Positions 54,398-59,735 of a DNA stretch of 64,000 nt are shown in pieces. This DNA is from Clostridia bacterium (GTDB lineage: Bacteria; Bacillota; Clostridia; Christensenellales; CAG-917): contig JAFZVB010000014.1 of the NCBI GenBank assembly GCA_017618055.1, positions 71,663-135,662 of the forward strand, in the 5' to 3' direction. Within the stretch, counting starts at the first letter, position 1. Each line of letters opens with the position of its first letter. The translations under genes and the position numbers were made by a program. Under the pieces are notes generated by a model. That model was not told where the DNA came from. It did not search any database and saw only the letters and a program-made list of their open reading frames with translations.

Positions 54398-54856
54398 TTA
54401 ATTTGGCTTATTTTCTTCTTGTAATTCCTTCCACATTATTAGAGCATCATACTTGCCATCATAGTATTTTTTTCTAACTCCATAAGATACAAATCCATAA
54501 GATTCATAGAGCTTAATAGCAGGTATATTATCTACTCTAACTTCAAGCGTCATACGTTTAAGACCAACAATTTGTGCATCATAAATTAATCTGGAAAGAG
54601 TCAATTTTCCAAATCCTTTTCCTCTGTATGTCTTTTTAACAGCCACATTTGTTATATGAGCTTCATCTACAACAGTATGGTAACCTGCATAAGAAATGAC
54701 TTCATCTCCACTCACACCAACTATATAGTGTGCATAAGGATGAGACAATTCTGGTATAAACATATTCTTAGTCCAAGGATTCTCATGCTCAAAAGCTTCC
54801 TTCTCTATTTCAACCATTTGGTCTAAATGTTCATATGCAAGTGGGACAAATGTCAT
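54398..54856 (-). CDS. rimI: ribosomal-protein-alanine N-acetyltransferase RimI (GNAT)
   Basis: 152 aa with the GNAT acetyl-CoA motif YRGKGFGKLTL. It has the usual position after tsaB. Confidence 0.85.
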   Translation of the reverse strand: MTFVPLAYEHLDQMVEIEKEAFEHENPWTKNMFIPELSHPYAHYIVGVSGDEVISYAGYHTVVDEAHITNVAVKKTYRGKGFGKLTLSRLIYDAQIVGLKRMTLEVRVDNIPAIKLYESYGFVSYGVRKKYYDGKYDALIMWKELQEENKPN

Positions 54857-55419
54857 TCTAAATTCCTCTCGGCTTGGGATTTTCTCATATAAAATGGAAC
54901 AAAAACGTCCACAAATTCGTTATTCTTAAACTTTTTCATCACAATTTGGTCTATTGCTTGCACTTCTTCAATCTCTGGAGTGCTTAAAACGTTAGAAAAA
55001 TCATATTCTTTCCCAGCTTCAATGAAGTCTGTTTCAACGATTTTTCCGTCTTTACACTTAGCTAAATAGGTATTTCCATGTCCAGCGTCTACAGAAACCA
55101 TAACCTCGCCTCTATTTTGTGCAAGGATTTCAAATGTAGAAAAAGATATTCTCTTTGCCTTATTTGCATAAGACATAGCTGTCATGGAAGAAACACCAAT
55201 TCTAATACCAGTAAAAGATCCTGGACCAACGTTAACAGCAAAGTTTTCTATGTCTTTTATATCCATATTAGCTTTGCTAATAATTTCGTCTATGGTTGGC
55301 ATTAATGAAGTAGAATGTTCTGCCTTCTCCATCTCTTTTCTAGTATATAAAAGCTGTTCCCCATTACGGAGAACAACTGTTAATGTAGAATTTGTGGTAT
55401 CTATTGCAAGATAATTCAT
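54853..55419 (-). CDS. tsaB: tRNA t6A biosynthesis protein TsaB
   Basis: 188 aa, short form, with N-terminal YLAIDTTNSTLTVVL and GPGSFTGIRIG. Confidence 0.85.
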   Translation of the reverse strand: MNYLAIDTTNSTLTVVLRNGEQLLYTRKEMEKAEHSTSLMPTIDEIISKANMDIKDIENFAVNVGPGSFTGIRIGVSSMTAMSYANKAKRISFSTFEILAQNRGEVMVSVDAGHGNTYLAKCKDGKIVETDFIEAGKEYDFSNVLSTPEIEEVQAIDQIVMKKFKNNEFVDVFVPFYMRKSQAERNLE

Positions 55420-56528
55420 TATTGCTGTTGTTCCTTAATTGTAAACTTTCTATGTGTTTCGTCTAGCACATCTATTTTAACAACAATGATTTTACCAGTC
55501 AATGAATTGTACTTATTCCATTCTATAATGGTGATACCATTATCCATTCTATCCTCAATACCTAATTCGTAGATATCTTCCTCGTTTTCAATACGATACA
55601 TATCCAGATGATATAAAGGATATTTCCCAGAATCATATTCATTCATTATAGTAAATGTTGGAGATGTTATTTCTTCTTGTACTCCAAGTGCCTTTGCTAA
55701 ACCTTTTGTAAACGTTGTTTTACCTGCACCGAGTTCACCTTCAAGAATTATCTTTTCGTTTCCTTGTAAGCCCTTAGAAATCGCCTCAGCTAATTTAAAT
55801 GTATCTTCTTCAGATGCAGAATAATAAACTCCATCCTCATCAACCAAATCTTCTAAGGTTTCTTCCTTTTTCTTCTTTAATGAAGTTCCATCCCAATGTA
55901 ATATCTTAGATAGTTTCTTATAAAATAAGAAAGTAATTAATGTTACTATTATATATCTCAACAAATTGAATGGGATAACAGCAACACCCAAATACCATGC
56001 CCAGAAGTTATCTACAGTAATTCCTTTATATAAAGATGAAAGCATTCCAACTATTCCGTTCATATTATTTCCGAAATACAAATTGAGATAGAAAGGAACT
56101 GATATCCATCTATTTACTATTAAAGCCATACCTGTAGCAAATATTGTAGAAACCAACATTCCATACAATGCACTCTTCTTTGTCTTAAAGATCTTATAGA
56201 TTATAGATGCAGGAAGAACGAATGCAACACCAAGTAGAATATCTGTTAATTCCCCAACATACATTGTGCTAGAAAGTGGGAACTTTAATAAGCACTTAAA
56301 GATAATTACCAAGCAACCAGATATTGGTCCCATTGAGAATCCAGCAAGTAATGCAGGAAGTTCTGAGATTTGGAAATCAAAGAAAGATGGAAACATAAAT
56401 GGAAGCTTAATAAAATGTCCGAGATAATATAGCAAGAATGAAATAGCTGTAAGCATTGCCATTTTAGCAACCCAAGATGCTGAAAGTCTAAAGACTTTTT
56501 TCTTGTCTAATGTTTGCAATTTTGTCAT
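55419..56528 (-). CDS. tsaE: fusion of an ECF-transporter S component (RibU-like riboflavin binding subunit) and the t6A ATPase TsaE
   Basis: 369 aa. Residues 1-~205 form six TM helices with the RibU-like block VIPFNLLRYIIVTLI. A K/E-rich linker follows. Residues ~228-369 are TsaE (GELGAGKTTFTKG, SPTFTI, HLDMYR). The gene is preceded by an FMN riboswitch. Confidence 0.8.
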   Translation of the reverse strand: MTKLQTLDKKKVFRLSASWVAKMAMLTAISFLLYYLGHFIKLPFMFPSFFDFQISELPALLAGFSMGPISGCLVIIFKCLLKFPLSSTMYVGELTDILLGVAFVLPASIIYKIFKTKKSALYGMLVSTIFATGMALIVNRWISVPFYLNLYFGNNMNGIVGMLSSLYKGITVDNFWAWYLGVAVIPFNLLRYIIVTLITFLFYKKLSKILHWDGTSLKKKKEETLEDLVDEDGVYYSASEEDTFKLAEAISKGLQGNEKIILEGELGAGKTTFTKGLAKALGVQEEITSPTFTIMNEYDSGKYPLYHLDMYRIENEEDIYELGIEDRMDNGITIIEWNKYNSLTGKIIVVKIDVLDETHRKFTIKEQQQ

Positions 56529-56534
56529 AAATAA

Positions 56535-56690
56535 AAACTCCTTTGTTGGAGCTTTTGAAAAAGTATAACCTATTTAACACTTTTCCCATCCAGACTATAA
56601 CTGTCGGTAAAGGAATTTCACCTTTTCAACACCGAAGTGCTCGCAGACTATACTGCCGGTGAGGAATTACACCTCGCCCCAAAGTACTTA
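56535..56690 (-). promoter_or_regulatory. FMN riboswitch (RFN element) with an SD-sequestering or terminator helix
   Basis: The minus strand reads GGGGCGAGGUGUAAUUCCUCACCGGCAGUAUAGUCUGCGAGC...GGUGAAAUUCCUUUACCGACAGUUAUAGUCUGGAUGGGAAAAG. This matches the invariant RFN blocks. Downstream, AAAGCUCC-N6-GGAGUUUU pairs the SD and is followed by U-rich sequence. Confidence 0.9.
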
Positions 56691-56691
56691 T

Positions 56692-56720
56692 ATTTTAATG
56701 TCATAAAATGTAGTAGTCAA
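56692..56720 (-). promoter_or_regulatory. Candidate promoter of the FMN-riboswitch operon
   Basis: The minus strand reads TTGACT-N17-TAAAAT. The -35 element abuts the stop codon of the helicase-nuclease ORF. Confidence 0.55.
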
Positions 56721-59700
56721 CTACATTAATACACCCTCATCAAATAAGGATTGTTGTATTGCAGTAATCTTATCCTTAGATGCAACAATTATATCCGCAA
56801 TATTCTCATATGATTTCATGAAAGAATTAGGAATGAATATTAATAGTATTCCATGTCGTTTACAAATATCCATTTTCCTTCTATCTGATACTTCTCTTGA
56901 AACCATACCTAAATGTTCTCCACCAGTCAATTCAAATGCTATAACCGGTTTTTCACCTAAAAATCCTTTTTCAAATAGAACCAAATCAAACTCTTTGTTT
57001 TCATCTAGCTGCTCATCATCAAAAAGTTTATATAATGGAACATTTCGTTTTGCATTATATTTCTTATGACAAGAACAGAAATGAGAAACTGTTTTGTAAA
57101 ATTCGTCTTCTGCTTCACTTCCATTTGATCTTCCAATCTCAATACAAACTGATTCATTTGGAGGAACTTCAACATTTCCATTGTTCTTTGCATAATCTAA
57201 TAGATGGTATAAGTCATCACTCTTATCTGAGAATAACCCGACTGCTTGAGTATCTGCTGCTATAACGAGTTTTGATTTAGCCCTTGTAGTTGCAACATTT
57301 ATTAATTCGTAGTTATTTTTTAGCCATGCAAATGTTTTCTTACTAGATTTTAAAGAGATTGCTGTAGAAAAGATTATTGTATCTTTTTCTGCACCTTGTA
57401 ATGAATGGACTGTGTCACACTTTACATCGGTTATCTTTTCAAATTCTAGCATCTTATTAATTAACTCTTTTTGATTTACAAATGGAGTCACAATAAATGC
57501 ATCTTTTATCTTATTTCTCTTTATGTAATTAATTATTGCTGAAGCCTCTTCAAAAGCTTCGTTCTTTTGTCTAACGTTTATATTCTTTACATCCAATAAT
57601 TGTATCTCACCCAATTCATTTAGGAATGAAGTATTCAACGAATTGTTATAGTATCTTTGGTTTGAGAATGATATGATTTTCTTCCCACATCTATAATGAT
57701 ATTCTAGAAGAATATATTTTGAGATATTATCCGTTGCTATCATTACATCCAAGATAGAATGCGTTTTGTAGTTATAGTTACTAGACACATTATACTTATC
57801 CATTAATGCAAAGTTGACATTATCTTCTAAAACTATTACTGGTCTTAACTGGTTAGGATCTCCTACAAGCAATAAATTCTCTGCTTTAGATATTGGGATC
57901 AATGCTGTTGCAACATTACATTGTCCTGCCTCATCCATAACAACCAAATCAAACATGAACTTATTTCTACCCAATCTTCTTGATGATATATTTGTTGAGA
58001 ATATAATTGGGAATGCGTCAGTCAACAGTTTCATATTATTATCATCTTGTGTCCACTTATTAAATTCAGAAACTCTCTTATCATCATCTTGGATACTACA
58101 TATATCAACAAGAGTCTTATATCTTGGCAATTTTAGTTTGTTTATATATTGAAGTGATTTGAAGAATAAGAACTGCGATAATCTGCTATTCTCATTAAGT
58201 GGAATAAACAACGATGTAACTTCTTCATTGCTAACTTCCGGATAATCCTTTAAAGATAACTTTAAATCATTTATTTTTTCTTTAACTGTATCTATTATTT
58301 TACTGCTATTTTCTCCAAATGATTCTACCAATCTTTTTGAACTCTTTAAGCAATTAATGATATCTATTCTTTTTTCTTGCTTATTTAATAATTCAATCAA
58401 CCTTGCATTTTGGTTGTCTGTTGAAACTTTGATTTTGTTCAACATCGCATCTTGAGGTTCTTTGTCAAAAGTGTAATTGAATAATTCTTTTATTCTTAAT
58501 GTTGTTTTTTTAACATCATTTACATTGCCCAATCTCAAATATGGAAAATTGATTTCTTTGTCATAATATTTAAACTTAAGTTTCTCCACAATTCCATCTA
58601 CTGGTTTATTGTTGGATGAACAAATAAGCATATTCCTATCATTATAGAAAGCGTTTAGTGCAACATTTATTATGGTTTGAGTTTTACCCGTTCCTGGAGG
58701 TCCTTGCACATATGTTACAGGATACTTCATGGCATTATATAAAACTCGCATTTGGTTAATATTAATTTTCTTGTCTAGAATGATGAGAGATGGTTCTTTT
58801 CTTCTAATATTATTTCTTTTAGAAATATTGCCAAAAAATGATTTTAATGGAGTTGGCAATGCATTGTTTAAATATTTTTCTTCAATTGCCTTATATGTTT
58901 CATTCAAATCTGTTGCAGTATCCTTTCTAAGCAACATAATATCTGGTCTAGAATCTAACACTTCACCTGTATGCAAGTTCTCTCTTATAATATCTTGACA
59001 TTCATTGAAATTATCCGAGAGCATCCTTTCAAATTCATCAACATCCATATTGACATAATTGAATAAGGAGTGTCTTCTTCCCTCAATTGTGAAAGATTGA
59101 TTTACTCTAACTATGTCTTGTAAAACTAATGATTTCTTTGCAGGATCAAATGATAAATTATAGTATGCAACCAAATACTTCTTCTTGCCCATATCTATAG
59201 ACAATTTGTTAATAGCTAATGCATAACTTGAATTATTTGCTTTATTAATGTCATAACGATAAATATCTCTAATAATTGTGCTTAATTGGTTATCATCCAA
59301 TTGATAAATCTTGTTTTTTCTTAGAACATTTAAATCTATTCCTTTTATGCACTCATATTGCTCTTGATATGGATCACAGTCCAACATATTACACTCTAAA
59401 TAATAATTTAGAACGTTGTAATTAAATAAGTCATAATGCAACCATGGACATAATCTAAAATTCTTTTCTATCTTTTCAACCAAGTCATCAGACCTATCAT
59501 ATGAAGTCATATCAATGACCTGTGCACTTTTAATACCATCAAAGGAAATCCATGTATCTAGGACTTCCGTTGATTTATTCTCATTAAAAATAGTTACAAA
59601 TAATGATTTTCTTTTAAAATTGATATCTTTTATTGCAATCCAATAGAAAGTATTTTCTTTATTCTTATTAACATAAGATATTTTTAACCATTTACTTTCC

Positions 59701-59735
59701 TTTATGGCTTTAGAAATACTTTCTCCAATATCCAT
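56721..59735 (-). CDS. large multidomain protein: sensor-like N-terminal region (WYL-like?) + Upf1/DNA2-type SF1B helicase + C-terminal DUF2726/Vsr-like PD-(D/E)xK nuclease domain
   Basis: 1004 aa. Helicase motifs are VQGPPGTGKT (343-352), VVMDEAGQ (598-605), LLLVGDPNQLRPV (621-633), TVHSLQGAEKD (775-785) and INVATTRAK (812-820). The C-terminal region reads EFDLVLFEK...VIAFELTGGEH...DRRKMDICKRHGILLIFIP. The composition is N/K/I-rich and AT-rich compared with the neighbours. Confidence 0.8.
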   Translation of the reverse strand: MDIGESISKAIKESKWLKISYVNKNKENTFYWIAIKDINFKRKSLFVTIFNENKSTEVLDTWISFDGIKSAQVIDMTSYDRSDDLVEKIEKNFRLCPWLHYDLFNYNVLNYYLECNMLDCDPYQEQYECIKGIDLNVLRKNKIYQLDDNQLSTIIRDIYRYDINKANNSSYALAINKLSIDMGKKKYLVAYYNLSFDPAKKSLVLQDIVRVNQSFTIEGRRHSLFNYVNMDVDEFERMLSDNFNECQDIIRENLHTGEVLDSRPDIMLLRKDTATDLNETYKAIEEKYLNNALPTPLKSFFGNISKRNNIRRKEPSLIILDKKININQMRVLYNAMKYPVTYVQGPPGTGKTQTIINVALNAFYNDRNMLICSSNNKPVDGIVEKLKFKYYDKEINFPYLRLGNVNDVKKTTLRIKELFNYTFDKEPQDAMLNKIKVSTDNQNARLIELLNKQEKRIDIINCLKSSKRLVESFGENSSKIIDTVKEKINDLKLSLKDYPEVSNEEVTSLFIPLNENSRLSQFLFFKSLQYINKLKLPRYKTLVDICSIQDDDKRVSEFNKWTQDDNNMKLLTDAFPIIFSTNISSRRLGRNKFMFDLVVMDEAGQCNVATALIPISKAENLLLVGDPNQLRPVIVLEDNVNFALMDKYNVSSNYNYKTHSILDVMIATDNISKYILLEYHYRCGKKIISFSNQRYYNNSLNTSFLNELGEIQLLDVKNINVRQKNEAFEEASAIINYIKRNKIKDAFIVTPFVNQKELINKMLEFEKITDVKCDTVHSLQGAEKDTIIFSTAISLKSSKKTFAWLKNNYELINVATTRAKSKLVIAADTQAVGLFSDKSDDLYHLLDYAKNNGNVEVPPNESVCIEIGRSNGSEAEDEFYKTVSHFCSCHKKYNAKRNVPLYKLFDDEQLDENKEFDLVLFEKGFLGEKPVIAFELTGGEHLGMVSREVSDRRKMDICKRHGILLIFIPNSFMKSYENIADIIVASKDKITAIQQSLFDEGVLM

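Follow-up and report, generated by a model that had tools for sequence, protein, structure and literature searches.

A ribU::tsaE gene fusion behind a flavin mononucleotide riboswitch in uncultured gut Clostridia

Why should the gene for an ATPase of transfer RNA (tRNA) modification continue, without a break, from the gene for a vitamin transporter? The question is raised by a locus in a stretch of 64,000 nucleotides (here called the window; positions 71,663 to 135,662 of contig JAFZVB010000014.1, assembly GCA_017618055.1) from a Clostridia bacterium of the GTDB lineage Bacteria; Bacillota; Clostridia; Christensenellales; CAG-917. In this locus a flavin mononucleotide (FMN) riboswitch precedes a single open reading frame (ORF) that begins as RibU, the riboflavin-type substrate-binding (S) component of an energy-coupling factor (ECF) transporter, and ends as TsaE, with tsaB and rimI directly downstream. 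Units of an FMN riboswitch and ribU, and operons of the type tsaE-tsaB-rimI(-tsaD), are both textbook arrangements for the Bacillota. TsaE is near-universal in bacteria and is needed for N6-threonylcarbamoyladenosine at tRNA position 37 (t6A37), a modification that many species cannot, or can hardly, do without. To our knowledge, TsaE has been studied only in the form of a small, soluble ATPase, one that binds TsaB-TsaD and is released again in cycles.

Here we describe the anatomy, conservation and probable descent of this fusion. The reading that we prefer, with a probability of roughly 0.7, is that ribU::tsaE is a genuine bifunctional gene kept by selection and gated by the riboswitch, and that the only TsaE of the cell is made from it as a membrane-tethered tail of RibU. 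Although both types of unit are known, the genomes compared below indicate that the fusion of RibU and TsaE in this uncultured family of gut Clostridia is real and conserved; it is also apparently undescribed. Full-text literature searches gave no report in which TsaE or t6A is connected with RibU or with FMN riboswitches, in agreement with an initial annotation of the sequence, whose author knew of no described link between flavin status and this modification.

Two domains in one reading frame

That annotation had proposed one ORF of 369 residues with no stop codon between a RibU-type S component, in its first 205 residues or so, and a complete TsaE in its last 140 or so. Each part of the proposal holds, the domains now being placed at residues 1-212 and 234-369. 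On the N-terminal side, the family PF12822 (ECF_trnsprt) matches residues 21-201 with 82.7 bits (threshold 30.7), and RibU proteins were the only matches of the first 217 residues among PDB sequences (S. aureus 3p5n_A, E=3e-17; T. maritima 5kbw_A, E=8e-17; also 5kc0, E about 1e-17). A Foldseek search with this domain matched RibU structures at TM-scores of 0.78-0.84 and E of about 1e-7 (0.84 for T. maritima RibU), with ThiT (E=4e-3), BioY and FolT all clearly poorer. By sequence and fold, the N-terminal half resembles characterised RibU more than it does S components with other substrates, and the homology together with the FMN riboswitch suggests that the fusion binds and transports riboflavin. 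Rather than ending as a stand-alone RibU of about 180-210 residues, the ORF runs on for 157 residues past the RibU part.

This continuation carries every mark of TsaE. PF02367 matches residues 238-353 with 129.6 bits (threshold 26.6), and the equivalog model TIGR00150 scores 114.2 bits against a cut-off of 60.1. The Walker A motif GELGAGKTT (nucleotides 55713-55739) and the motifs SPTFTI and HLDMYR are intact, and the Walker A, SPTF and HxDxYR motifs are invariant among 38 fused homologues. The C-terminal 140 residues can be aligned over their whole length with the TsaE of the T. maritima TsaB2D2E2 complex (6n9a_E, E=7e-27), and Foldseek matched TsaE structures to this domain at TM-scores of 0.72-0.78; it found no PDB chain that covers both domains. 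In place of a soluble, free-standing protein of about 150 residues, TsaE here forms the C-terminal part of a membrane protein with several transmembrane helices.

The AlphaFold2 model, for which the 38 fused homologues served as input, has a mean predicted local distance difference test score of 83.6 and a predicted TM-score of 0.54, which fits two independently folded domains: a helical bundle (residues 17-210) and an alpha/beta domain (residues 234-367), with a low-confidence linker between them (residues 213-221). In the 38-sequence alignment the junction L210-H211-W212 is invariant and LHW(D/E)G invariant or nearly so, and the linker holds no conserved methionine. Dozens of invariant residues lie in each half, among them the A-x-x-x-A region of the first transmembrane helix and all of the TsaE nucleotide-binding motifs; to judge from this alignment, both halves are under strong purifying selection. 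No hydrophobic segment follows residue 212 in the hydropathy profile, the N-terminus and the segment after the sixth transmembrane helix (TM6) are both rich in lysine, and in the solved structures of RibU both termini are cytoplasmic. Taken together, these three features would place the TsaE domain in the cytoplasm.

Could the long ORF have arisen from two genes merged by a sequencing or assembly error? The same uninterrupted frame is found in three independently assembled genomes of the genus, at 98, 94 and 74% identity. Among the matches listed from a collection of 5.8 billion proteins, 120 of 120 homologues have both Pfam domains, at 54-73% identity, and at least 28 clusters (50%-identity representatives) have one alignment stretch across both domains, at 34-59% identity. 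Since the ORF recurs in diverged clusters and, within genus and family, in genomes that were assembled independently, an artefact, which the initial annotation had listed among the results fatal to its reading, is excluded, and we put the chance of such an error at next to nothing. Among 61 related genomes 27 fused loci were identified, and the fusion is present in at least 27 relatives.

In the genome that contains the window (1.58 Mb, 95% complete) the fusion itself is the one real match to TsaE. In the other fused genomes, too, a single match spans the whole query, hence there is no second tsaE. NCBI names these proteins TsaE only, which hides the transporter half in annotation.

The locus and its FMN riboswitch

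The unit is made up of the following features, in the order of transcription except where one lies inside another.

56692 to 56720, minus strand: sigma-70-type promoter TTGACT-N17-TAAAAT, agreeing with the consensus at 10 of 12 positions; the predicted transcription start falls on the first aptamer bases
56574 to 56690, minus strand: FMN riboswitch aptamer (RFN element, RF00050), found as a covariance model match
56529 to 56573, minus strand: expression platform of 45 nucleotides, assigned from folds and comparison with relatives
55419 to 56528, minus strand: ribU::tsaE fusion ORF of 369 residues (P0001), without internal stop
55893 to 56528, minus strand: RibU-type ECF S-component domain, residues 1-212 (helical bundle 17-210), from PF12822, PDB matches, Foldseek, AlphaFold2 and hydropathy
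55830 to 55892, minus strand: short linker rich in lysine and glutamate, residues 213-233, with no in-frame ATG and a single TTG (Leu219)
55422 to 55829, minus strand: TsaE domain, residues 234-369, from PF02367, TIGR00150, PDB alignment and Foldseek
55474 to 55502, minus strand: candidate internal promoter TTGACT-N17-(TG)TAAAAT, unproven, 10 of 12 positions, within the coding region of the TsaE C-terminus
54853 to 55419, minus strand: tsaB, 188 residues (TIGR03725, 112.7 bits; cut-off 69.3)
54398 to 54856, minus strand: rimI, 152 residues (TIGR01575, 131.3 bits; cut-off 86.4)

The start codon of tsaB and the stop codon of the fusion have one nucleotide in common (TAATG), and rimI overlaps tsaB by four (ATGA). 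The ORF coordinates thus confirm both overlaps reported in the initial annotation, which was also right that tsaD is absent from the operon; it is unlinked, on another contig (G000:C28:175875-176807). The order tsaE-tsaB-rimI is tightly coupled, as is usual for the Bacillota operon, and the sequence offers tsaE no promoter of its own. Upstream, a helicase ORF of 1004 residues (56721-59735, minus strand), with a superfamily 1 core (AAA_11/AAA_12) and a DUF2726-like C-terminal region, ends in a stop codon (56721) that directly adjoins the riboswitch promoter at its -35 box. Between ORF and promoter no terminator was seen, so read-through from upstream would also cross the riboswitch.

The covariance model RF00050 matches the aptamer with 105.3 bits (E=1.9e-23; curated gathering score 66.2 bits) over model positions 1-138 in full, not truncated, which substantiates the RFN element that had been recognized by eye; its own promoter likewise stands where it had been described, reading TTGACT-N17-TAAAAT from 56720 to 56692. 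The expression platform consists of an anti-P1 segment, AUACUUUUUC, then a hairpin of 9 base pairs, AAAAGCUCC/GGAGUUUUU (56556-56548 paired with 56541-56533), which includes the Shine-Dalgarno (SD) sequence GGAG, then UAUUU and the AUG at 56528. The folds bury GGAG, 8 nucleotides 5' of the ATG, in this helix, as the earlier claim of an SD-sequestering helix would have it, and the platform of the window is predicted to work as an SD sequestor plus a weak terminator. Most relatives have a platform of terminator type, made of a GC-rich hairpin and a U-run, and in the genus of the window the hairpin includes the SD; the assignment to the terminator type comes from this comparison with relatives, the folds of the window itself being unclear. 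In these relatives high FMN should lead to attenuation of the unit as a whole. Because attenuation would cover the entire transcript, tsaB and rimI would be affected as well, unless they are served by a promoter of their own. For the window, riboswitch class and predicted platform together point to FMN-dependent repression.

The riboswitch follows ribU rather closely. RF00050 lies directly 5' of the fusion, or of ribU, in all 33 loci of the first two scans, and it was found in all 16 further loci in which ribU adjoins tsaE, be the two fused, co-directional or divergent. It was not found at any of the five scanned loci at which tsaE has no ribU neighbour (L010, L012 and L062-L064). At three loci from three families (L055, L056 and L057) ribU and tsaE are divergent and the FMN riboswitch lies in their common intergenic region, so that the neighbourhood persists in a second orientation.

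In outline, the proposed mechanism would run as follows. From its own promoter, the FMN riboswitch would gate one mRNA for RibU-TsaE and the translationally coupled tsaB and rimI. The RibU helical bundle would lead through a cytoplasmic C-terminus and a linker of about 20 residues to the complete TsaE ATPase, which, anchored on the cytoplasmic side of the membrane, would have to bind TsaB-TsaD in the cytoplasm and release it in turn. When FMN is abundant, the aptamer would close, the SD hairpin and U-run would stop transcription, block initiation or both, and RibU-TsaE would fall; in relatives with clear terminators, tsaB and rimI would be lowered as well.

The two halves of this unit have well-characterised counterparts. 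As in the Bacillota unit exemplified by Bacillus subtilis ypaA/ribU, RF00050 stands directly 5' of a RibU-type S component, control is by a terminator, by SD sequestration or by both (in the window, as predicted), and the energising module has its genes at another place in the genome; unlike that unit, the ribU ORF of the window runs into TsaE and on to the coupled tsaB-rimI, which brings genes of the translation machinery, without relation to flavin metabolism, into the regulated unit. The order tsaE-tsaB-rimI is that of B. subtilis ydiB-ydiC-ydiD-ydiE (tsaE-tsaB-rimI-tsaD), but in the genus of the window tsaE has no promoter or start codon of its own and tsaD is unlinked. With the TsaE of the T. 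maritima TsaB2D2E2 complex (6n9a, 6s84) the domain has in common its fold and every nucleotide-binding motif, whereas TsaE in both B. subtilis and T. maritima is a free, soluble protein of about 150 residues.

Split and fused relatives

The initial annotation had looked to related genomes to tell whether ribU and tsaE are split or fused; both states were found, the fused one being conserved. In the 25 families sampled from the order, the arrangement riboswitch-ribU-tsaE-tsaB-rimI occurs commonly, even where ribU and tsaE are separate genes, and ribU adjoins tsaE in four Clostridia families outside the order as well. Full-length fused matches in a class-level sample of 300 genomes are confined to the family of the window.

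The split loci show what may have been lost. At 11 of 16 of them, TATAAT lies 6-8 nucleotides 5' of the tsaE ATG, often with TTGCAA or TTGCAT 17 nucleotides further upstream, in or just after the 3' end of ribU. Junctions of the form TTGCAA/TTGCAT-N17-TATAAT are seen at L009/L051, L011, L050, L052, L053, L054, L058, L037 and L038. The arrangement implies leaderless tsaE mRNAs from a promoter overlapping the ribU 3' end. 'Candidatus Faecicola pullistercoris' (DVNW01000004.1, L009/L051) may serve as an example: its gene order is that of the window, but ribU ends in a stop codon and tsaE has its own TTGCAT-N17-TATAAT, with an ATG of the leaderless type 6 nucleotides past the -10 box. At two split-type loci ribU has a terminator of its own. 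Among the fused loci, 18 of 27 lack an in-frame ATG in the linker, and a -10 box of the leaderless type is present in only 2 of 27.

On a maximum-likelihood gene tree of the concatenated domains, the state changed between fused and split at least 4-5 times, which marks the ribU/tsaE junction as labile. The fused locus L036 is sister to the split locus L061 with 98% support, and the window belongs to a clade of 16 rows, all of them fused and with a short linker; in the clade of the window, neither the tsaE promoter nor an in-frame ATG is left. From these comparisons, the fused state is derived from an older neighbourhood of ribU and tsaE-tsaB-rimI in which tsaE had its own promoter, and fusion was accompanied by loss of tsaE's own expression signals. 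The fusion would have arisen when ribU lost its stop codon within this packed neighbourhood, and would have been gained or lost several times. An apparent fusion of riboflavin kinase to TsaE in three other genomes (G080, G141 and G236) proved to be only an untranslated open frame 5' of an ordinary tsaE.

Fusions among t6A components are known (Kae1-Bud32, TobZ), with fused and adjacent states alternating among genomes (PMC4615747). The present case resembles them in that a t6A component lies inside a larger polypeptide and the two states alternate, but it differs in the partner: those fusions join members of one pathway, and here TsaE is joined to a vitamin transporter without a known role in t6A.

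Rival readings and biological meaning

That the ORF is real and yet TsaE, with or without tsaB-rimI, is expressed mainly from an internal promoter or initiation site, out of reach of the riboswitch, is a reading that the split relatives recommend, for they have a promoter at exactly this junction and a leaderless tsaE start. The signals to be expected of it are largely missing from the window. As the initial annotation had noted, no in-frame ATG lies between the halves, from TM6 to the P-loop; the TTG of Leu219 is the only canonical in-frame start in the junction, its nearest SD-like sequence, AGGA, is 16 nucleotides upstream and too far away, and no -10 box accompanies it. On the coding strand from about 55510 to 56420 there is no promoter-like site. 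The TATAAT found in the TM6 coding region of the window arises from Tyr-Ile-Ile codons, has a -35 box with 3 of 6 matches and is absent from L018, of the same genus. One subclade does have TTGCCT-N17-TATAAT at this place, and in those lineages alone the site may be an internal promoter under selection; as a general mechanism it was rejected, being limited to 5 of 27 fused loci. In these five (L020, L021, L024, L029 and L030; 46-55% GC) the residues Leu-Pro...Cys/Ala-Ile-Ile are written as TTGCCT-N17-TATAAT or TACAAT, with ATA-ATA codons. A conserved internal ribosome-binding site made of the HW(E)G codons (TGGGAGGG) and a following TTG or ATG was also discarded, since it occurs in about 3 of 27 fused loci and the window has TGGGATGG and then TTA. 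The fused relatives differ among themselves: a linker SD with ATG or TTG is kept in L032, L023, L029 and L026, whereas L025, L028, L034 and L035 have no candidate TsaE start of any kind. For tsaB and rimI there is the TTGACT-N17-(TG)TAAAAT at 55502 to 55474, about 55 nucleotides 5' of the start codon of tsaB. Four genomes of the genus have this site without variation, yet it encodes the conserved peptide LTGKII..VKI; similar sites occur in 8 of 26 fused loci, and promoter-like matches in the region are not enriched over shuffled sequence (17, against 14 +/- 4.3 expected). The internal promoter or start that the initial annotation had named as fatal to its reading is thus wanting for TsaE, for which none is conserved in the genus, and is represented for tsaB-rimI by this weak candidate. 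In the window TsaE probably does not escape riboswitch control, tsaB and rimI possibly do, and independent expression as the main source of TsaE appears unlikely to us. A terminator-like hairpin of 12 base pairs with a T-run lies at 55378 to 55352 (minus strand), within the first 70 nucleotides of the tsaB coding region; it was not taken for a meaningful terminator, one such site being expected by chance in the region.

Cleavage of the polypeptide in the linker would free a soluble TsaE, and fusion would then enforce co-expression and not tethering. Residues 213-221 are modelled as disordered and vary in sequence and length among homologues, as such a reading would have it, but neither a protease site nor an autoprocessing domain could be found, the linker itself is short, and the near-invariance of LHW(D/E)G suggests a structural rather than a disposable role; we consider cleavage improbable. 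Even less credit is due to the idea that one half has changed its function, RibU having become a mere membrane anchor or TsaE having given up its place in t6A synthesis to regulate riboflavin transport. An unprecedented architecture invites that thought, and a second riboswitch-gated S component in the genome could carry riboflavin uptake; against it stand the strong purifying selection on both halves and the retention of tsaB, tsaC and tsaD in a genome with no other tsaE.

Several points weigh against a riboswitch-gated, tethered TsaE itself. TsaE is essential in many bacteria, and strong repression by FMN would seem risky. The platform hairpin of the window is weak, simple minimum-free-energy folding gave no clean, mutually exclusive pair of ON and OFF states (hairpin versus anti-P1 helix), and from these folds basal read-through may be high. 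The in-frame TTG of Leu219, preceded by purine-rich lysine and glutamate codons, might in principle serve as the start of a free TsaE, some fused relatives (L032, L023 and L029) keep a linker SD with a start codon, and the promoter-like site at 55502 to 55474 could feed tsaB-rimI. We nevertheless favour the gated fusion: as TsaE has neither start codon nor promoter of its own in the genus, the only TsaE of the cell would be the membrane tail of RibU, presumably functional while tethered.

The rest of the genome gives this reading a physiological setting. TsaB, TsaC/Sua5 and TsaD are all encoded there, and with the fusion as sole TsaE the t6A pathway would be complete and dependent on the fused protein. 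An energising module for the transporter is indicated by one EcfT (PF02361, 130.5 bits; G000:C28:241277-241981), and the flavokinase RibF is present. Lumazine synthase, RibH (PF00885), was not detected in this genome, although search controls were positive in 14 of 14 genomes; at 95% completeness its absence is probable rather than certain. With RibF and EcfT present and RibH not detected, the organism is probably auxotrophic for riboflavin and dependent on its import. If so, the ribU riboswitch must stay partly open during growth, and a partly open switch is probably a simple reason why the linking of a low-copy housekeeping ATPase to a riboswitch is tolerated. A second FMN riboswitch (89 bits) lies on the same contig outside the window (G000:C1:386299-389431, locus L004), before an S component of 209 residues (PF07155, ECF-ribofla_trS, 100 bits; nearest PDB chain 4hzu_S) that is followed by a Flavodoxin_4 protein. 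By these matches, the genome has two riboswitch-gated candidate importers of flavin.

The farthest-reaching interpretation is that flavin supply acts as an input to translation, with the capacity for t6A37 scaled, or confined to the membrane, by vitamin B2 status. We hold this to be rather doubtful; if true, it would be a direct regulatory link from a vitamin to tRNA modification, without known precedent. The arrangement could in any case couple a core function of translation to flavin supply, and would extend the FMN regulon beyond flavin metabolism in abundant uncultured gut Clostridia. The packed junction with its leaderless promoter offers a clean case of flipping between two genes and one fused gene. 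For the organisms that carry it, the fusion would mean that TsaE function tolerates, or else exploits, N-terminal tethering, and would make of them a natural test of how much TsaE a cell requires.

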